A stretch of DNA of 64,000 nucleotides, from the NCBI GenBank assembly GCA_963677495.2, contig CAXXOU010000004.1:480001-544000 (forward strand). The letters are read 5' to 3'. Origin of the DNA: Candidatus Cloacimonadales bacterium (GTDB lineage Bacteria > Cloacimonadota > Cloacimonadia > Cloacimonadales > JAFGVF01). Positions within the stretch are counted from its first letter, which is position 1, and each line of letters starts with the position of its first letter. The position numbers and the translations under genes are program-made. Below, piece by piece: positions 1,504 to 11,084 of the stretch. The notes below the pieces were generated by a model. The model was not told the origin of the DNA and made no database searches. It was given only the letters and a program-made list of their open reading frames with translations.

Positions 1504-1539
1504 AAAAAAGGAAAGGTTGCAGATTTCTCTGCAACCTTT
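1504..1539 (-). terminator. rho-independent terminator downstream of hcp
   Basis: aaaggttgcaga-tttc-tctgcaaccttt stem with an A-tract on its left (U-tract on - strand). Confidence 0.8.
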
Positions 1540-1563: not shown

Positions 1564-3222
1564 TTATCCAATCATCTTCTTAATATCTTCTTCAACAGTT
1601 GAGATACCACCAATATTGAAGTTCTCAACGAGAACATTCACAACATTTGGTGATAAGAACGCAGGGATTGTTGGTCCAAGGTGGATATTCTTCACACCAA
1701 GATAAAGAAGAGCGAGAAGCACGATTACAGCTTTCTGCTCGTACCAGGCGATGTTATAAGCGATAGGAAGATCATTAACAGATTCAAGTCCGAATACTTC
1801 CTGAAGCTTAAGAGCAATAAGTACTAGTGAGTAGCTGTCATTACACTGACCTGCATCAAGTACGCGTGGGATTCCACCGATATCACCAAGGTTCAGCTTA
1901 TTGTAGCGGAACTTAGCACAACCGGCTGTTAGGATAACTGTATCTTTTGGAAGAGCTTCAGCGAAATCTGTATAGTAGCTTCTACCTTTCTGACGGCCAT
2001 CACAACCAGCCATCACGACAAACTTCTTGATTGCACCTGATTTAACTGCATCTACTACCTTGTCAGCAAGAGCAAATACCTGCTCATGAGCAAATCCTCC
2101 AACAATGCTTCCAGTTTCAATTTCAGTTGGGGAAGGTAGTGTTTTAGCTAATGCAATAACTTCAGAGAAGTCTTTTGCTTCACCTTTCTTAGGTTCTGCA
2201 ATATGCTTAACACCATCGAAACCAACTGTGTTAGTTGTGAAAACTCTTTCTTTGTAAGAATCTTTTGGTGGAACAAGGCAGTTTGTTGTAAGAAGTACAG
2301 CGCCGTTAAAAGAATCAAATTCTTTATCCTGTAACCACCAGGCATTACCATAGTTACCTACAAAGTTATCATACTTTTTAAAAGCAGGATAGTAGTTAGC
2401 AGGAAGCATTTCACCATGTGTATAAACATCAACACCGGTGCCTTTTGTCTGCTCTAAGAGCTCTTCCATATCTTTAAGGTCATGACCAGAGATAAGGATC
2501 GCAGGATTATTGCGAACACCAATATTAACTTCTGTGAGTTCAGGATGTCCGTAAGCAGATGTATTAGCATTGTCTAAGAGAGCCATAGCATCTACACCGA
2601 ATTTACCACATTCAAGTACGAGGGGTACAAGTTCACCAACACCGAGAGTATCATCCAATGTTGCAAGGAAAGCTTTTTCCATGAACATAACGAGTTCTTT
2701 ATTTGTTTTTCCAAGGTGGAAAGCATGATCAGCATAGGCTGCAATACCTTTTACACCATAGATAAGGAGTTCCCTCAAAGAGCGAATATCTTCGTTTTCA
2801 GTAGTAAGAACACCAACTCTTGCGGCTTTCGCATCAATGTTTTCTTCTGTAACTGTGAAGTTAGCAGCATCATGGTCAGCAAATTTAGCTGTCATTCCCA
2901 TCTCAGCAACTTTCTGCTTACCCATCTCACGAAGTTCGATTGCTTTCATTATCTGGTTGATAAAGTACTTTCTGTCAAAATTAGCATTTGTAATAGTTGA
3001 GAACAAGCTTTCCATGAAGAACTTATCAATCTCTCCACACTGTTCAGCATACTGATTTCTTACTTCTAAAGTTGCTCCACTACGGAAGATAGCGATCCCC
3101 TTAAGTGCATAGATTAATAAATCCTGTAAGTTAGCTACATCAGCTTTCTTACCACATACTCCGTTAAATGTACATCCTTTGTTACCTGCGGTTTCCTGAC
3201 ATTGAAAACAAAACATACTCAT
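1564..3222 (-). CDS. hcp: hybrid cluster protein (hydroxylamine/NO reductase)
   Basis: N-terminal [11 protein letters not shown]5C cubane motif; GHDL, HGEM, TNC, AGCDG, AGC, GQCND, WYEQK hybrid-cluster ligand motifs; 552 aa. Confidence 0.97.
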
Positions 3223-3258
3223 TGTAATACTCCTTCTTTTTGTGTTTTTAGTTTATTT

Positions 3259-3498
3259 TTAGTAATTTATTCCTGCCGGTTTTACATTGTTTGGATCGAA
3301 TGCGTGACATGGAGTAACTCCATATACCATTCCACAATTCGGACACTTATCTTCAAAATTCTGCATTTCGAATGTAGTTCCACATTCACAGCTAATCTCC
3401 ATTGGTACCGGCATTGGCTGTTCTGCAAATCCCATCATTCTCACTTTATCCACTACTTGCTTGCCATTTTCAAAGCTTCCACTGCATCCTTCGTGCAT
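3259..3498 (-). CDS. small Cys-rich metal-binding protein (MHE N-terminus, CxC...CPxC)
   Basis: 79 aa, AGGAG RBS, co-oriented within the operon; MHEGC, CECG, CPNCG, TPCH. Confidence 0.8.
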   Translation of the reverse strand: MHEGCSGSFENGKQVVDKVRMMGFAEQPMPVPMEISCECGTTFEMQNFEDKCPNCGMVYGVTPCHAFDPNNVKPAGINY

Positions 3499-3507
3499 GA
3501 TATCTCC

Positions 3508-4524
3508 TTATCTTATCTTTTCTATGATTTCACCGTTTCTAAGTTTTGAACGATATGCGAGTAGGGTTCTATCCATCTCTTCAAGTGTAGAGAGAATCTC
3601 TCGCTCTTTATCAGTTGTTTCTATAACTTTATGGATTCCACCATTCTTGATTACGACTCTCTTATCTCCCATGAGGGCTAAGATTGGGTCATGAGTTGCC
3701 ATGAGAACTATCTTATCTTCTGAAAGAAGTAGTTTTAAGGCTTCCTTCCTATCGATTCCGGCATTCTCAATCTCATCTATGAGGATAATTGGTGATTTAC
3801 TTAAAATAGCAGTGTCTGCAATCATCAGAGCACGTGATTGCCCTCCCGATAAACTGGTTATGGGTGTGTTAGGTGAGAACTGCTCACCAGCCAGGTCATT
3901 TGCTTTATCTATAATCTTTTGAATCACAATCTCTTTGTTCTCTACAAGTCTGCTCTCAGCATGTAGCTCTACAAACTCATACACAGAGAGATCCATTACG
4001 AAATTCATATTCTGGGAGAGTTGTGCTACAAGCTTATCAGAAGATGAGAAACGCCATTTGCTATCAGGAACATCATTGTTGATGAGAACAGTTCTGGAAG
4101 TTGGTGTATCGTTCTGAGCTACCCATTCTATATCTCCGAGTAGTCGACTTTTACCTGATCCTGTTGGACCGACAATGCAGATTATCTCTCCCTGATGTAT
4201 TTCAAGATTCTCAAACTGCTCTGTATTCCCCGATTTATCAGTTCCCGGTTTGATTGTAACTGACTTTACTATCTCTTCATCCTGCCCTAAGAAGGCATTC
4301 ATCTGGTTTATGAACTCAGCAGTCTGAATATAGAGTTGTTCAATATCCATTGCATTATCTTCAATCGCTTCCTCATCAAACTCAGCAAAGAACTGCTCTA
4401 ATGTGAGATCCTCTTTGCCTGCAACAGCAAGGTTGTTATCTGCAAAGTATGCTGAAAGGTATGGATAGGATTCTAATAACTCAGAGATCTTATTTGTCCG
4501 TATAGTTTTGCTATTATAGTTCAT
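3508..4524 (-). CDS. ABC-family ATPase with N-terminal helical (DUF1858-like) extension
   Basis: GPTGSGKS Walker A, LSGGQ signature, ILIDE Walker B, ATHD; no transmembrane segments. Confidence 0.9.
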   Translation of the reverse strand: MNYNSKTIRTNKISELLESYPYLSAYFADNNLAVAGKEDLTLEQFFAEFDEEAIEDNAMDIEQLYIQTAEFINQMNAFLGQDEEIVKSVTIKPGTDKSGNTEQFENLEIHQGEIICIVGPTGSGKSRLLGDIEWVAQNDTPTSRTVLINNDVPDSKWRFSSSDKLVAQLSQNMNFVMDLSVYEFVELHAESRLVENKEIVIQKIIDKANDLAGEQFSPNTPITSLSGGQSRALMIADTAILSKSPIILIDEIENAGIDRKEALKLLLSEDKIVLMATHDPILALMGDKRVVIKNGGIHKVIETTDKEREILSTLEEMDRTLLAYRSKLRNGEIIEKIR

Positions 4525-4533
4525 CTTTACCTC

Positions 4534-5229
4534 TTAGTCTTCCAGATTCATCTTTCTAACATTACCCATCTGGTAGCTTTCACCAATACGGGTTTCACCA
4601 AGACAGTAGGAGCAAAGAGCTGAAGGCATTGGGAACCTTAATTCTTTACCAACAAGAGTTTCGATATCCTCAGCTTCATCATAGAGTAGGGTTGAGAGCT
4701 CAAAGCTACCTTGACCTGTCAGACCATTGATATGCATAATTGTTGCTGAAGGATTTACTGTATTCACTCGAGAAGCAAACACTTCTCGTTCTGCTTGCGA
4801 CACTATGTCACCTTTAGTGATTACAACAATATCAGCTGATTTAAGCATTGGTCCTATCTTCTTGGGAGTGTTGATTCCACTAAGATTATCAATAACGCAG
4901 ATAGCTTTAATGCCTTTTACATATGGAGAACAACGATTACACAGTCCGGCTGATTCACTAATAAGTATGTCGTAACCGTTCTCTACTCCCCATTTAGTCA
5001 CTTCCTCGATGTTACTAATGAAGTAATGATCAGGGCAAAGTGCACCGGAAAGACCTTTCTTTACCGGTATCCCGGCTTTTCTGTAAAGCTCATCATCATC
5101 TGTATAAAGACAATCGAACTTAGCTACAGCAACCTTCAAACCTTTCTTGTTAAGAGACTCTATTGTCTTCAGGATAACTGAAGTTTTACCGGATGAGGGG
5201 GGACCTGATATTGTAATCAAATTCATCAT
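4534..5229 (-). CDS. G3E-family (HypB/UreG-like) GTPase
   Basis: GPPSSGKT, LCPDH, ESAGLCNRC, TKGD, C-terminal CSYC. Confidence 0.88.
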   Translation of the reverse strand: MMNLITISGPPSSGKTSVILKTIESLNKKGLKVAVAKFDCLYTDDDELYRKAGIPVKKGLSGALCPDHYFISNIEEVTKWGVENGYDILISESAGLCNRCSPYVKGIKAICVIDNLSGINTPKKIGPMLKSADIVVITKGDIVSQAEREVFASRVNTVNPSATIMHINGLTGQGSFELSTLLYDEAEDIETLVGKELRFPMPSALCSYCLGETRIGESYQMGNVRKMNLED

Positions 5230-6462
5230 CTACTCCTTAATCAGAGATTCTTCAAACAGTTGTTCACAATGCTTTATCAAAGCAGAGATGTCATTGTTAT
5301 AAATGTAATCCCAACCGAGCCACATGAAGGTGTTCTCTTTAGGAATGTGATTATCGATGTCAGGATGAACACTTGGGAAGAGGCCACTATGGGCTAAGAT
5401 CTCTCCAACTTTCTTTGATGCAAAGAAGTCTACAACAGGTTGTAACTGCTGAATTCTTTCGCTCTTAGCAAGCATAAAGATAGGACTGATTATCGCTCCA
5501 TCTTCAGGCCAAACAGCTGCCATTGGACCGTTATCCTTAACCATCTTGGTGAAGAAATAGGGCATGATTGTTACGATCGGGCGATTCTCTTTCTTTCTAT
5601 CACTCTTAACCATTTGGGAGGGGTGTAATGACTCAAGCAAACTACGACCTAACTTCTTAACCCCTTCATCACCATAATGCTTCTGGATGTTAAGAAGGAT
5701 TCCATTGAAAAGGTCGAAGTCGCCAACAGGAAGAGATACCCTTTTCTCAAACTCAGGTTTAAGGATATCGGACCAGGTTCTAGGCATTGTGCGATCACCA
5801 AGCTCCTTCTTGTTTATAAGAAAGACAGCCGGTACTACACTTATCATTCCATAATGACGTTTAGGGTCCCGTAAATTGATACCATCAAACAGGCTGTTAA
5901 ATGATGGGAAATCTGTTGTATCCATGAAAGTATTTTGACGTTTGAATTTGCCAATCATCTCTTCATCAAAGAACATATCGAAACCGGCAGAGATGAACAG
6001 GTCTGGAAGTTGCTTGGCATCTGTGACACCAACAATATTCTTCTCAACCCATTCCAGACCGGTAGATGCGGCTTTGAGTTCATGATTCACTGTCACATCA
6101 TGTGTCTCTTTGTAGTTTGCTATGAACTTGTTAAATCCCTCTAAAAGCGGTATTCTTACAGGGCAGGGCAATAGTCCAACAATGTTCAACGCCTCTTCAT
6201 CACTGCTCCTCTTGTTGTCGGCGAGAGTGGCATCTATGTTATTCATTCCGGACTCAATAGCTTCAGTCAGCAGACTCATGAAAGTTTCTAAGTCTATCTG
6301 TTTTAGCATTAAAGCCATCTTTAGGGATATTGATCCGGCAAACTTAACCCTCTTCTCAACATCTTCCATCTGGGTAAAACCATTCGATGTGAATACAGGC
6401 ACTGTCTCCGGATATTTCTCTACTATCTCAAGTAGCGTATCATTTTCATCTATATATTTCAC
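5230..6462 (-). CDS. solute-binding-protein fold with N-terminal DUF1858-like domain, no signal peptide
   Basis: N-terminal TLLEIVEKYPETVPVF; LLPCPVR; PRTWSDIL and VWPEDGAIISP motifs typical of iron/polyamine-type SBPs. Confidence 0.8.
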   Translation of the reverse strand: MKYIDENDTLLEIVEKYPETVPVFTSNGFTQMEDVEKRVKFAGSISLKMALMLKQIDLETFMSLLTEAIESGMNNIDATLADNKRSSDEEALNIVGLLPCPVRIPLLEGFNKFIANYKETHDVTVNHELKAASTGLEWVEKNIVGVTDAKQLPDLFISAGFDMFFDEEMIGKFKRQNTFMDTTDFPSFNSLFDGINLRDPKRHYGMISVVPAVFLINKKELGDRTMPRTWSDILKPEFEKRVSLPVGDFDLFNGILLNIQKHYGDEGVKKLGRSLLESLHPSQMVKSDRKKENRPIVTIMPYFFTKMVKDNGPMAAVWPEDGAIISPIFMLAKSERIQQLQPVVDFFASKKVGEILAHSGLFPSVHPDIDNHIPKENTFMWLGWDYIYNNDISALIKHCEQLFEESLIKE

Positions 6463-6474
6463 TTCTTTTCCTCT

Positions 6475-6822
6475 TTATTCCTCTCCGGGGAACACAGTCT
6501 TAGTGACGGGCTTTGGGAGCTTCATCACAAGAACTCTAATATCACTGTCAGTTTCGTTGTAGATGCAGTGGATTATATTCTTAGGGCTCTCAATTATATC
6601 ATCTTTAGAAACTTGGACTTTCTCTTCACCTACGAGTATAGTCGGGCTACCTTCAAGAACATAAAACGCAACATCAACAGGTGTGATATGTGGTTTCAAA
6701 GCTTCACCTGCTTTAAGGAATAGGTGCATAATTAATGCATTTTCAGTATCATACAATTTTGTAGACTTAACTCCGTGAGGATTCTTCGCATCATTCAATT
6801 TCTTGTAGTTCTTAATCTCCAT
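6475..6822 (-). CDS. cupin domain protein
   Basis: LKPHITPVDVAFYVLEG...ESPKNIIHCIYN cupin motifs. Confidence 0.9.
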   Translation of the reverse strand: MEIKNYKKLNDAKNPHGVKSTKLYDTENALIMHLFLKAGEALKPHITPVDVAFYVLEGSPTILVGEEKVQVSKDDIIESPKNIIHCIYNETDSDIRVLVMKLPKPVTKTVFPGEE

Positions 6823-6832
6823 TATTACTCCT

Positions 6833-6852
6833 TTAGGTACTGTAATACCTAA
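6833..6852. promoter_or_regulatory. putative Rrf2 operator (7-6-7 palindrome) abutting the cupin RBS
   Basis: TTAGGTA-ctgtaa-TACCTAA perfect arms; related site at 7290-7309. Confidence 0.65.
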
Positions 6853-6867
6853 TTAACTGTAAAAAAA

Positions 6868-7269
6868 TTATTGAAAGTCAGATAACTTTATGTTCTTGAA
6901 CTCATCATAGAGTTCTTGAGTTATCTTATTTATCTTTGCGGTAAAGATACATGAACTGAAAGTACAAACAGTACGACCTAACGGGCAAGCACCAACGTTC
7001 ACTTTACCTTCTATCACTTCATATATTTCAAGAAAAGATATCTGATCCGCTGGTCTGCTAAGTGTGAAACCACCGGCAGGACCACGAGATGATTCAACGA
7101 TATCTGCTTTACTAAGTTTTTGAAAGACCTTTGCAAGATGAGCTGGAGATGCCTCGAGCTTTTCTGCAAGGACTTTCACATTCATACGGTTCGGATGATT
7201 CTTCACAATCAATGCTAAGCCGTGCAATGCAATCGAAGTTGCTTCTGACAAGTTAATCATATTCGACAT
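6868..7269 (-). CDS. Rrf2 family transcriptional regulator (3 Cys, likely Fe-S)
   Basis: winged HTH LAKVFQKLSKADIVESSRGPAGGF; CPLGRTVCTFSSC. Confidence 0.93.
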   Translation of the reverse strand: MSNMINLSEATSIALHGLALIVKNHPNRMNVKVLAEKLEASPAHLAKVFQKLSKADIVESSRGPAGGFTLSRPADQISFLEIYEVIEGKVNVGACPLGRTVCTFSSCIFTAKINKITQELYDEFKNIKLSDFQ

Positions 7270-7289: not shown

Positions 7290-7326
7290 TCTGTTACTAC
7301 AATACCTAATTAGCCTTTTGCGTCAA
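7290..7326 (-). promoter_or_regulatory. sigma70-type promoter of the Rrf2-hcp operon overlapped by a degenerate operator
   Basis: - strand TTGACG-16 bp-TATTGT; 7290-7309 matches the 6833 palindrome at 15/20 positions. Confidence 0.6.
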
Positions 7327-8030: not shown

Positions 8031-8188
8031 ACTCCCTTTTATCTCAGCAGTAATTAGTGCTTTCAACAAAACTCTAACTTATTAACAAATTGTTTACTTC
8101 TTGGTAATTAACCCAAGGATTACCCAAGTGTTTCTCAAGGGTTACCCAAGAGTCTCTCAAGGATTACTGCTGTGAGATGAGGGGGAGT
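8031..8188. repeat. terminal-IR element containing an 11-bp-period C(C/T)CAAG array
   Basis: actcccttttatctcagcagtaat ... attactgctgtgagatgagggggagt; c(c/t)caag at 8112, 8123, 8134, 8145, 8156. Confidence 0.8.
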
Positions 8189-8190
8189 TG

Positions 8191-8281
8191 ATAGCCTACA
8201 GCGAGTAGCCTACAGTCTATAGCCTACAGCTTATAGCCTATAGCCTATAGCCTACAGCTTATAGCCTATAGCCTATAGTTT
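8191..8281 (+). repeat. tandem 7-mer array (ATAGCCT consensus, about 13 units)
   Basis: atagcct acagcga gtagcct acagtct atagcct acagctt atagcct... Confidence 0.92.
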
Positions 8282-8349
8282 TAAAGTCTGTAGGTTTCAC
8301 TAAATAATTATCTTATTGACATTTAGATGATTGCTATCAGTATATGATT

Positions 8350-8709
8350 ATGGAAAGGAAATGTATTATTAGTGATAAATCATTAGCGTTCGCTGTTAGG
8401 ATTGTAAATTTAAGTAAATACTTAAGAGATAAGTGTCATGAAAGAACCTTATCCGTTCAAATCCTTAGATCCGGTACATCAATTGGTGCGAATATTGAAG
8501 AAGCAAATGGAGCTCAATCAGATAAAGACTTTATCGCTAAAATGAGCATTGCCTATAAAGAATGCAGAGAAACAAAGTACTGGTTAACTTTACTCCACAA
8601 AACAGACTATCTTAATGAAGCTCAATATGAATCACTCATGAAAGACAATCTAGAACTACTCAAAATCATTATCGCAATTATCAAAACTAAAAAGCAAAAT
8701 ATGAAATAA
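8350..8709 (+). CDS. four helix bundle protein (IVP/TIGR02436-like), copy 1
   Basis: KSLAFAVRIV..QILRSGTSIGANIEEA..DFIAKMSIAYKECRETKYWL; start set to match copy 2 (ORF track 8344). Confidence 0.93.
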   Translation: MERKCIISDKSLAFAVRIVNLSKYLRDKCHERTLSVQILRSGTSIGANIEEANGAQSDKDFIAKMSIAYKECRETKYWLTLLHKTDYLNEAQYESLMKDNLELLKIIIAIIKTKKQNMK

Positions 8710-8787
8710 GCAATAGCTTATAGTCTGTAGGTTTTTACTAAATAATTATCTTATTGACATTTAGATGATTGCTATCAGTATATAATT

Positions 8788-9144
8788 ATGGAAAGGGAAT
8801 GTATTATTAGTGATAAATCATTAGCGTTCGCTGTTAGGATTGTAAATCTAAGTAAATACTTAAGAGATAAGTGTCATGAAAGAACCTTATCTGTTCAAAT
8901 CCTTAGATCCGGTACATCGATTGGTGCGAACATTGAAGAAGCGAATGGGGCTCAATCAGATAAAGACTTTATCGCTAAAATGAGCATTGCCTATAAAGAA
9001 TGCAGAGAAACAAAGTATTGGTTAACTTTACTTCACAAAACAGATTATCTCAATGAAGCTCAATATGAATCACTCATGAAAGACAATTTAGAACTACTCA
9101 AAATCATTATCGCAATTATCAAAACTAAAAAGAAGAAGATGTAA
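8788..9144 (+). CDS. four helix bundle protein, copy 2 (tandem duplicate, 438-bp unit)
   Basis: identical to copy 1 except K4E and the C-terminal tail. Confidence 0.93.
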   Translation: MERECIISDKSLAFAVRIVNLSKYLRDKCHERTLSVQILRSGTSIGANIEEANGAQSDKDFIAKMSIAYKECRETKYWLTLLHKTDYLNEAQYESLMKDNLELLKIIIAIIKTKKKKM

Positions 9145-9145
9145 A

Positions 9146-9205
9146 AAGCTATAGGCTGTAGGCTATTCGCTATAGGCTCTCTTTCAGCTATAGGCTTTTA
9201 GTTAT
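9146..9205 (-). repeat. 7-mer array, reverse complement of the 8191-8281 array
   Basis: aagctat aggctgt aggctat tcgctat aggctct ... agctat aggcttt. Confidence 0.85.
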
Positions 9206-9416
9206 CTTCAACTTAAGGAAAAAGGATCCCAACAAAGTTAATCCTGCTTGGAAAGGAATAAGTCTAAAATTAAAATCTTGACACACAAAAAATACGTCTT
9301 AATAATGTATGTATGAATTAGTTGAGTCCGTGCCTTCATTGAAGAGTAATGCTCTCACAGAATGCAGTTTCAACTTTACCAACAACAACCATTTAACCAA
9401 AACTGGAGGAAGTATT

Positions 9417-11084
9417 ATGAAAAAGCTTATCATGTTTTTACCCTTGTTTTTCCTCATCAGCAATGTTCTTACACAATCCAGAGAAGAGTGGATTTGGTCA
9501 GCAACAGCCGGTGGGAGTAACAACGACTGGGGTACAGGTATTGCCATCGATGAAAGTGGCAATAGCTATATAACAGGGACTTTTGAATTAACAGCAAATT
9601 TCGGATCAACGTCTATAACGAGTAACGGCACAAAGGATATCTTTGTTGCAAAACTAGACCCTGAAGGTAACTATCTTTGGTCAACACATGCCGGCGGTAA
9701 CATTGGTGACTGGGCTTATGACATATCTACGGATAATGAAGGTAACAGCTATGTCACAGGAGTGATAACAGGCACAGTCACTTTTGATGCAATAACACTC
9801 GTTTCCAATGGAGGATGGGATATCTTTGTTGCAAAATTAGATTCTCTTGGAAGCTGGGAGTGGGCTATTAATGCAGGAGGAGCTGCTGCAGATCAGGGTC
9901 TGGCAATTGCAACAAACGAAGAAGGAGATTCTTTTGTTACCGGAACTTTCGAAGATAATGCAACTTTTGGGATATTACCATTCACTAGTAATGGATGGGA
10001 TGATATCTTTGTTATGAAAGTTGATACTTGGGGTAATATCATTTGGGTATATCAATGCGGTGGAACCGGTTCAGATGAAGGAACCGGCATCACTGTTGAT
10101 GACAATGATAACTGCTTTTTTACAGGTTCATTCAGCGATACTGCTACTTTTGGACCAACATCCCTGACGAGTGACGGACAGTATGATATCTTCATTAGTA
10201 AAATTGACCAATATGGCAGTTGGCAGTGGACGAATCGTGCCGGAGGGACGGATGATGATTATGGAAGCTGTGTTGATTTAGATAATAGTGGATATTGCTA
10301 CATTGGTGGTGAGTTTGAAGGAACAGCTTCATTTGGACCATACTCTTTAATCAATAGTGGAAACTGGTATGATATTTATGTCGCAAAACTTGATGAATTC
10401 GGTAATTGGGAATGGGCTAACTCAGCTCATGGATCAACACCGGAAGATTGTGAAGCCATTGCTGTTGATAGTAGGGGTAATGCTACTATCACAGGCTATT
10501 TCAACGGTACTTTGGAGTTTGGATCAATAGTCCTTACAGACAGTGATGCTGTTACATTTGATGGTTATATCGCTAAAATCAACAATGCAGGTACCTGGTT
10601 ATGGGCTGAAAGTTTCGGTAACACCAATGGAGAAGATTGCAATGGTGTCGTAATCGATAATTTTGGTTCAAGCTACATAACCGGCTATTTTACAAATACT
10701 TTATCTATCGGTGGAGCGTGGTTAAATAGTCATGGTGGTAGAGACATATTAACTGCCAAGTATGGTTTTCCACCATTAGATAATGATGGAACAGCTTGTG
10801 AACCAAATTCTCTGCATATCAACAGTTATCCAAACCCATTCTGTACAACCAATAAGCTTACTTACAATGTTTCACAGACCGGGAACGTCAAGCTGGAAGT
10901 GTTTAACATGCGTGGACAACTTGTAAAACAGTTATTACATGATTACCAAACTAAGGGTGAACATTCATTAAGCTGGGATGGAATGGACGCAAACGGAAAG
11001 CAGGTTCCATCAGGTTTATATTTCTACAAGATTTCTTTAGATAATGCCATTATGACACATAAAGTAGTTGTTCTAAAAGATTAA
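9417..11084 (+). CDS. secreted SBBP-repeat beta-propeller protein with C-terminal FlgD-Ig/T9SS-like sorting domain
   Basis: GGAGG RBS then MKKLIMFLPLFFLIS signal; repeated D..GNSYITG.F...DIFVAKLD..G..W; SYPNPF...WDG.D.NG..V.SGLYFY. Confidence 0.9.
   Translation: MKKLIMFLPLFFLISNVLTQSREEWIWSATAGGSNNDWGTGIAIDESGNSYITGTFELTANFGSTSITSNGTKDIFVAKLDPEGNYLWSTHAGGNIGDWAYDISTDNEGNSYVTGVITGTVTFDAITLVSNGGWDIFVAKLDSLGSWEWAINAGGAAADQGLAIATNEEGDSFVTGTFEDNATFGILPFTSNGWDDIFVMKVDTWGNIIWVYQCGGTGSDEGTGITVDDNDNCFFTGSFSDTATFGPTSLTSDGQYDIFISKIDQYGSWQWTNRAGGTDDDYGSCVDLDNSGYCYIGGEFEGTASFGPYSLINSGNWYDIYVAKLDEFGNWEWANSAHGSTPEDCEAIAVDSRGNATITGYFNGTLEFGSIVLTDSDAVTFDGYIAKINNAGTWLWAESFGNTNGEDCNGVVIDNFGSSYITGYFTNTLSIGGAWLNSHGGRDILTAKYGFPPLDNDGTACEPNSLHINSYPNPFCTTNKLTYNVSQTGNVKLEVFNMRGQLVKQLLHDYQTKGEHSLSWDGMDANGKQVPSGLYFYKISLDNAIMTHKVVVLKD

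Follow-up and report, generated by a model that had tools for sequence, protein, structure and literature searches.

The hybrid cluster protein, Hcp, is an enzyme that detoxifies nitric oxide (NO), and FbpA is a substrate-binding protein (SBP) that binds iron through tyrosines. In ABC transporters, permeases dock to the nucleotide-binding domains (NBDs) through a coupling helix (PMC3688454; this and the other papers are cited for the parts of their text that were available). In the SufBC2D complex, SufC binds SufD helices at its Q-loop surface, and the motion of these helices exposes Cys405 of SufB (PMC6006206). G3E GTPases are defined by a G1 P-loop and a G3 motif in which Asp is replaced by Glu, and the four subfamilies tabulated in the available part of PMC9164220 are all given without an ABC ATPase partner. 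Here, we describe an operon of seven genes in the window, a stretch of 64,000 nucleotides of contig CAXXOU010000004.1 from a Candidatus Cloacimonadales bacterium. It encodes an Rrf2-family regulator, a cupin, an SBP, a G3E-type GTPase, a soluble ABC ATPase, a small Cys-rich protein, and Hcp (Table 1). We propose, with roughly even credence, that the module is a soluble ATP- and GTP-driven machine that strips or rebuilds NO-damaged Fe-S-type (metal-thiolate) centers in many client proteins; the soluble ATPase-GTPase architecture alone is highly probable. The proposal draws on the gene order, the absence of membrane and export signals, gene fusions, invariant ligand-type residues, and operator motifs, together with a predicted ATPase-GTPase interface. 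We found no description of the module in open full text (PMC and bioRxiv; subscription papers, figures, and supplements lay outside the search), and the available parts of PMC13056359, PMC1274295, PMC12915319, PMC5701242, PMC6006206, PMC3688454, and PMC9164220 do not mention it, in line with a first-pass annotation of this DNA that knew of no characterized system of such composition.

The seven open reading frames (ORFs) are co-oriented on the minus strand, from 7269 to 1564, exactly where the first-pass annotation had placed them. From rrf2 to hcp, they are separated by 45, 12, 0, 9, 9, and 36 nt, and a purine-rich stretch resembling a ribosome-binding site (RBS) precedes each gene. Generic ABC matches aside, each gene is single copy in its genome by tblastn. 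The peak 19-residue hydropathy given by our own script is 1.86 (Hcp) and does not exceed 1.44 in the other six proteins; judged by sequence, all seven are without a convincing membrane segment, as had been claimed.

We examined how the genes of the module are distributed in the best 80 of 541 confirmed GTDB loci (78 to 94% GTPase identity), which come from Cloacimonadota, Spirochaetota, Fermentibacterota, Bacteroidota, Bacillota, and Fusobacteriota, and in 80 metagenome loci, counting each gene where the flank was long enough. The SBP gene lies upstream of the GTPase gene in 77 of 77 GTDB loci and the ATPase gene downstream in 78 of 78; the metagenome loci have the SBP in 71/74 and the ATPase in 77/78. 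The small protein is present in 60/69 GTDB and 30/62 metagenome loci, rrf2 in 30/80 GTDB loci, and a close cupin homolog in 15/80, and all seven genes occur together in 13/80. Because the order and presence of SBP, GTPase, and ATPase hold while other genes vary, these sequence comparisons identify SBP-GTPase-ATPase, in fixed order and across many anaerobic phyla, as the conserved core and Rrf2, the cupin, and the small protein as lineage-specific additions. No ORF with at least three hydrophobic segments lies inside the module (0/57 GTDB and 0/45 metagenome loci), which bears out the earlier view of a permease-less set that is not a complete importer. Hydrophobic ORFs do flank the module in three of these 57 and three of these 45 loci; they belong to unrelated families (MatE, NAD-binding oxidoreductase in two cases, cytochrome bd, EamA, and PepSY). 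The GTPase family comprises more than 6,400 clusters, and the module is found in 59 of 101 Fusobacteriota, 34 of 301 Bacillota, and 12 of 201 Spirochaetota genomes sampled. A search of a plasmid collection gave one match, to an unannotated, chromosome-sized Fusobacterium record. A close module at one locus (L165:1130-8707) precedes NifH-like and nitrogenase-component-1-like genes and an FecCD-type importer.

Gene fusions and a complex model both indicate that GTPase and ATPase act as one unit, as the first-pass annotation had supposed of the parts of the operon. The 92 long GTPase homologs comprise 84 GTPase-ATPase, 3 ATPase-GTPase, and 3 SBP-GTPase fusions plus 2 with the GTPase only, although some singleton fusions may be assembly errors; GTPase and ATPase are joined in 87 of the 92. 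P0308, a natural single-chain GTPase/ATPase fusion with the source name Clostridium beijerinckii, represents 61 sequences. On the tree, 12 sampled fusions fall at scattered places and require 8 label changes, at least 6 of them forced by starred branches. Apparent open frames of 583 aa in a clostridial family scan, considered as further fusions, proved on inspection to consist of two ORFs each. At another locus (L159:5929-8570), an IS605/TnpB-type gene lies between the GTPase and ATPase genes.

The ATPase motifs are intact (Walker A GPTGSGKS, Q-loop Q171, LSGGQ, Walker B ILIDE, and H-switch H278), with the key positions invariant in 73 rows, and its nearest solved relatives are NBDs of the MacB/BceA/MJ0796 type. 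Its N-terminal domain is weakly related to the N-terminal profile of the SBP (E 6.7e-6). We folded ATPase residues 84 to 338 with the GTPase as a 1:1 complex, along with three controls. The complex scored 0.76 and the best control 0.00; 116 of 157 solved complexes attain the mark applied, against 2 of 215 mismatched pairs, a calibration that is rough here since our own alignments were used. The runs agree on at least 92% of contacts, with partner pLDDT of at least 83. In the predicted interface, GTPase residues 141 to 156 pack against ATPase residues 126 to 141, 158 to 177 (the Q-loop), 184 to 192, and 234 to 242. GTPase D141 and V143 to E149, which form the core of this interface, are invariant in 73/73 rows (36 to 90% identity), and the SQAERE helix motif is not present in the HypB/UreG alignments. 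The model supports ATPase-GTPase binding, short of demonstrating it.

The GTPase falls in the G3E P-loop class by its HypB/UreG/MeaB-type G-domain fold, its G1 P-loop (GPPSSGKT, residues 9 to 16), and the Glu of its G3 motif (ESAG, 92 to 95, with E92, A94, and G95 invariant in 73 rows); the G4-like motif is TKGD, not NKxD. HypB, UreG, and MeaB are the top Foldseek matches of its model (pLDDT 86.8), with an E value of 1e-11 to HypB 2hf8. Cys65, His68, Cys97, Cys100, Cys206, and Cys209 are kept in 73/73 aligned sequences at identities down to 36%, and by analogy with its fold relatives, the protein is predicted to hydrolyze GTP and bind metal. Besides the fold, G1, Glu in G3, and TKGD, it shares with HypB and UreG a C-P-D-H sequence after the switch region and a small Cys-rich neighbor. 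It differs from them in its extra CxxC pairs and SQAERE helix, and its genome yielded no nickel client. It was identified neither as HypB (TIGR00073, 52.5 versus a cutoff of 121.2 bits) nor as UreG (TIGR00101, 26.9 versus 204.2 bits; urease PF00449 in 0/5 module genomes). Membership of COG0523 (CobW/ZigA) was also rejected: the Cys residues stand at 40, 65, 97, 100, 111, 206, and 209, without the CxCC that marks COG0523 (PMC9164220).

The SBP begins with a DUF1858 domain, not with a signal peptide. Among 126 SBP representatives of at least 300 aa (of 150 listed), a simple hydropathy rule found an N-terminal hydrophobic signal in none, the sole lipobox-like match being a conserved Cys motif, so the claim that the protein lacks a signal peptide extends to its relatives. 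The model (pLDDT 92.8) has an FbpA/FutA fold across residues 88 to 410 (Z 22.2, rmsd 3.7, 289 aligned against the FbpA-type fold). Cys100 (119/127 rows) and His280 (116/127) are near invariant; in the model, Cys100 caps the first strand and His280 comes after strand 275-278, a topology that suggests cleft-lining positions for both. Together with F303 and F304, they are the conserved cleft-type residues. The cleft would carry Cys/His and Phe-Phe at the tyrosine positions of FbpA, a mapping to the ferric site made by topology alone. The module resembles FbpA/FutA importers in its SBP fold, its intact NBD motifs, and a helix predicted to dock into the NBD like a permease coupling helix, but it has neither permease nor signal peptide. 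PDB profile searches returned no close solved relative of the SBP, GTPase, ATPase, or small protein; RecA matches in these searches were concatemer artifacts.

The small protein has an N-terminal M-H-(D/E)-G-C, two Cys pairs, and a C-terminal P-C-H, and residues H2, C5, C37, C52, C55, and C64 are kept in 30 of 30 sequences picked from 57. It was assigned to no named family. HypA was tried as its identity and rejected: PF01155 scores 16.6 bits against a cutoff of 28.9 (E 0.008), and no HypA appears among its PDB profile matches. Its M-H-E/D start presumably resembles the HypA nickel motif. A profile comparison of the small protein with the GTPase gave no match. Hcp exceeds its NCBIfam cutoffs by far (844/367 and 750/360.8 bits) and carries what we take to be the N-terminal four-Cys motif and the hybrid-cluster ligand motifs.

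Two operator types are found ahead of the module. The regulator encoded in the operon belongs to the Rrf2 family by the family cutoff, an autoregulatory palindrome, and the three cysteines (Cys95, Cys102, and Cys107) already counted in the first-pass annotation; it scores below the equivalog cutoffs of NsrR (35.8/182 bits) and IscR (53.4/207.6 bits), and its match to TIGR02944 is also below cutoff. An exact GGTA-N6-TACC palindrome lies upstream of 16 of 30 rrf2- or cupin-led units (24 within one mismatch), of none in shuffles, and of 0/58 rrf2-less copies. Scored with a matrix built from 22 sites in other genomes, the two best matches in the whole genome are the palindromes ahead of cupin (6833-6852, the best, at 27.2 bits) and rrf2 (7290-7309), in agreement with the proposed Rrf2 control. 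The 11 next-best matches, checked for a wider Rrf2 regulon, all fall inside ORFs. We infer that Rrf2 senses NO here.

Copies without rrf2 often have a different operator. GTAAC-N4-GTTAC is the HcpR2 motif (PMC1274295), and it occurs, within one mismatch, ahead of 27 of the 58 close copies that lack rrf2 (0.5 on average in shuffles), which substantiates the proposed tie to nitrosative stress. It is also present ahead of 13/23 GTDB and 7/23 metagenome copies that have no hcp within 5 kb, and of 11/18 Fusobacteriota or Spirochaetota copies, including copies in hcp-less genomes. In 12 genomes checked, 9 of 12 module promoters carry the motif, as do 11 of 16 hcp promoters in 11 of those genomes. 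A scan of the upstream regions for CRP and FNR consensus sites revealed no pattern. HcpR activates hcp under NO in C. difficile (PMC12915319), and a cupin adjoining hcp is NO induced in Desulfovibrio (PMC5701242); the GTP-binding proteins in the available part of the latter paper were considered as the module GTPase and are different genes. For Fusobacterium nucleatum and Treponema denticola, the available part of PMC1274295 gives predicted HcpR2 regulons that list hcp only. Membership of an NO regulon by motif and the weak likeness of DUF1858 to the ScdA N terminus (E 0.06) recall RIC/YtfE/ScdA and the HcpR/HcpR2 regulons, but the module has no hemerythrin domain and is an energy-driven multiprotein system. 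Five Fermentibacterota copies (L018, L023, L025, L026, and L032) have another motif, TTGTT-N7-GCACAA-like, upstream of the SBP gene, suggesting a third regulator.

The wider family is more diverse. Mid-distance relatives (54 to 67% identity) keep GTPase and ATPase and mostly the SBP; their neighbors include molybdate, FecCD-type, NMT1-type, and peptide/nickel-type importers, ModD-like genes, methyltransferases, AnfO, and DUF364. The distant relatives (36 to 42%) form one clade, with a Cys-rich protein in place of the SBP. PF04060 matches 5 of 14 of these partners scanned (E 1e-8), and the others align to these. Five of 14 distant loci adjoin Met/Cys genes, an SAM riboswitch, or Mrp/NifU-like or NifS-like genes (46 of 151 neighbor proteins were hand-picked for scanning). 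At L135:6878-11829, a trio of ATPase, GTPase, and PF04060-type protein stands behind an SAM riboswitch-metY-metA run, with cysK nearby; at L288:1058-9027, the trio lies between a NifS-like gene directly upstream and Rrf2, an oxyanion importer, and APS kinase downstream. L133 has metY, metC, and cysK as neighbors and L147 has metA. The Cys-rich protein of the trio carries conserved GCPIPH and FCMM motifs, marking an unnamed sulfur-linked system. L190 holds a close module and a distant trio on one contig, on opposite strands and within 7.5 kb. In the Atlas, there are methanogen-rich (archaeal) clusters and one cobW+FeS fusion cluster. The thread common to the paralogs is metal-sulfur chemistry, and NO defense would be the role of the branch found in the window.

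Several other scenarios may explain these data. The module could serve solely to mature or repair the hybrid cluster of Hcp, as first proposed. In a sample of 151 genomes of its own phylum, 20 have the GTPase, 116 have hcp, and all 18 with both carry hcp within 5 kb; module and hcp have operators in common, and predicted promoter and terminator bounds place them on one transcript here. However, 98 of these 116 hcp genomes have no GTPase match, and in a clostridial family sample (module in at least 28 and hcp in 141 of 146 genomes, five unscored genomes being left out), at most 113 of the 141 have no module match. Of 101 Fusobacteriota genomes, 42 have both, 17 the module only, 29 hcp only, and 13 neither; four of the module-only genomes, each assembled almost into one contig, retain an HcpR2-like site at 0 to 2 mismatches. 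As a profile control, the hcp model matches in E. coli, and the hypB-model control gave no sign either way. The survey of gene neighborhoods suggested in the first-pass annotation therefore came out mixed: permeases are absent, but hcp lies within 5 kb in only 15/43 GTDB and 3/26 metagenome loci with full flanks. Because many hcp genomes lack the module and some module genomes lack hcp, a machine specific to Hcp is unlikely, and Hcp may be a coregulated partner that is not required, one client at most. A pair of nickel chaperones akin to HypA/HypB or UreE/UreG, to which the top folds of the GTPase and the HypA-like traits of the small protein would be suited, is very unlikely. The 99.5% complete genome has no [NiFe]-hydrogenase, Ni-CODH, LarA, urease, or over-cutoff HypB (other nickel enzymes lay outside the search), the four enzymes are all missing from 3 of the 5 module genomes tested, and [NiFe]-hydrogenase (PF00374) is in 0/5, our genome included. 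Neither the operon nor its genome has SufB/SufD (PF01458), which matches in 14/14 control genomes; the genome encodes one NifU-type scaffold, at C1:655162. Among the client enzymes tested, none co-occurs consistently with the module.

That last result would also suit a nucleotide-driven sensing or signaling switch, in which the SBP senses a cytoplasmic ligand and ATPase and GTPase relay its state without building any cofactor. SBP folds do serve as sensors (6lkg, a sensor, is among the fold matches of our SBP), but the conserved members have no output domain, the invariant cysteines exceed what a switch needs, and the distant paralogs have an Fe-S-domain partner; we consider a switch quite improbable. 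The distant sulfur operons (L135, L133, L147, and L288) lend themselves to another scenario, in which the same ATPase-GTPase machine mobilizes or rescues thiol or persulfide sulfur (or S-nitrosothiols) and the SBP captures a thiol ligand, as the six invariant Cys/His of the GTPase and the cleft Cys of the SBP would allow. Yet such neighbors occur at only the 5 of 14 distant loci noted above, none is annotated for the close subfamily, and the HypB/UreG-like and Fe-binding-protein folds point to metal. Since Fe-S repair needs sulfur too, the two readings overlap; a pure sulfur role seems to us improbable, if not strikingly so. Finally, annotation names call these genes transporter parts, and 7 of the 10 mid-distance loci scanned have permease genes nearby, as if an ABC importer had its permease encoded elsewhere. 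We give this very little credence: the SBP never bears a signal, at 5 of those 7 loci the neighboring importer comes with an ATPase of its own, and the permease-docking groove is predicted to be occupied by the GTPase, which is often fused to the ATPase.

Repair of NO-damaged Fe-S-type centers must itself be set against several observations. The loci are best matches to our own GTPase, many of them kin (e.g., Marinifilaceae), and their counts are not independent. More than half of the rrf2-less close copies are without a near-exact HcpR2 operator, and the motif is found in only 4/26 mid-distance copies and 0/16 of the most distant ones; therefore, NO stress is not a family-wide role. The mid-distance relatives adjoin Mo/Fe/Ni-type importers and methyltransferases. 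Overall, conservation in the interface columns is only modestly above that of the other columns (0.76 versus 0.71 in the GTPase and 0.77 versus 0.66 in the ATPase), the complex was folded 1:1 whereas the mechanism needs a 2:2 assembly, and its score may reflect likeness to solved NBD-helix complexes. Cargo and client are what we infer. With that qualification, the alternative already offered in the first-pass annotation, other Fe-S centers under nitrosative stress, fits best, the NO link included.

In the mechanism we propose for such repair, NO or related stress would inactivate the Rrf2 repressor, and elsewhere HcpR2-type regulators would switch the module on. The cytoplasmic SBP would catch iron, iron-thiol, or nitrosyl-iron species through Cys100 and His280 in its cleft. 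A GTPase dimer may hold the metal or cluster on Cys65, His68, Cys97, Cys100, Cys206, and Cys209, by analogy with HypB and UreG. ATP-driven closing of an ATPase dimer would reshape this metal-thiolate site and expose or release the cargo, in the way that SufC works on SufB/SufD; in copies that have it, the small Cys protein may hand the cargo on. The likeness to SufBC2D lies in a membrane-free ABC ATPase, a partner with Cys/His ligands, a helix at the Q-loop between two subdomains (predicted here, at ATPase residues 164 to 177, 184 to 192, and 234 to 242), and stress induction (presumed here), Suf being under an Rrf2-type regulator in some organisms. In contrast to SufB/SufD, the partner is a P-loop GTPase and not a beta-helix, an SBP fold belongs to the set, and Fe-S assembly is a prediction by analogy. 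A broader idea, which we hold tentatively and think rather less probable than not, is that these proteins form a new ABC class: a G3E GTPase would take the permease's place, its helix would be the coupling helix, the SBP would deliver cargo, and Fe-S centers would be built or repaired on the GTPase dimer by ATP and GTP cycles acting together. The ATPase-GTPase core would then be old (bacteria and methanogens), with sulfur or Fe-S work in one branch and NO defense in another.

The features of the locus are collected in Table 1. The seven genes agree with the first-pass roster, which had overlooked the DUF1858 domain of the SBP, the N-terminal domain of the ATPase, the operators, and the terminator. 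Promoter-consensus matches of this kind are at chance level (15 versus 15.2 in shuffles).

Table 1. Features of the hcp-linked operon and its control regions, in window coordinates
Feature	Positions	Strand	Remarks
Sigma-70-like promoter match, TTGACG-16-TATTGT	7299..7326	-	Ahead of rrf2; consensus match only
Predicted Rrf2 operator 1, imperfect palindrome, core GGTA-N6-TACC	7290..7309	.	Overlaps the -10 match
rrf2, Rrf2-family regulator with Cys95/102/107, predicted Fe-S-sensing repressor	6868..7269	-	PF02082 and TIGR00738 over cutoff
Predicted Rrf2 operator 2, perfect 7-bp arms, in the rrf2/cupin gap	6833..6852	.	Adjoins the cupin RBS; repeat D7
Cupin (Cupin_2), accessory	6475..6822	-	Pfam
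SBP, cytoplasmic DUF1858 + FbpA/FutA-fold binding protein (SBP_bac_6), GTG start	5230..6462	-	Pfam, model
G3E-type GTPase, unnamed subfamily	4534..5229	-	Pfam cobW (PF02492) over cutoff; model
GTPase residues 141-150, invariant helix after G4, predicted Q-loop-groove docking (coupling-helix mimic)	4780..4809	-	Complex model
Soluble ABC ATPase (ABC_tran), N-terminal domain of ~85 residues	3508..4524	-	Pfam, intact motifs
Small Cys protein, 79 aa, zinc-ribbon-like, accessory	3259..3498	-	Sub-cutoff HypA Pfam match only
hcp, hybrid cluster protein (Prismane)	1564..3222	-	NF003658 and TIGR01703 over cutoff
Intrinsic-terminator-like hairpin, 12-pair stem + T run	1512..1539	-	25 nt past the hcp stop

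Elsewhere in the window, two long REP-like hairpins lie 3' of the operon at 965-1199 (arms 983-1019/1023-1059 and 1097-1130/1166-1199, 91% complementary). Two tandem, near-identical four-helix-bundle genes (TIGR02436; 8344-8709 and 8788-9144, within 8186-9205) share 300 nt at 97% with a spacing of 438, and short 7/14-nt repeat arrays flank the pair, mutually inverted across it. At 9309-11084, a 591-aa SBBP-repeat beta-propeller protein ends in a type IX secretion system (T9SS)-type/FlgD-like sorting domain.

Hitherto misannotated as parts of a transporter, the module can now be given a concrete architecture, in which an ATPase is predicted to drive a metallochaperone GTPase through the groove where permeases dock. 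The natural fusion P0308 makes its biochemistry directly approachable. The repair of Fe-S or metal-thiolate centers after NO damage is poorly known in strict anaerobes, and if the broader idea of a new ABC class is true, the module would be an overlooked route of Fe-S repair or biogenesis in these organisms.

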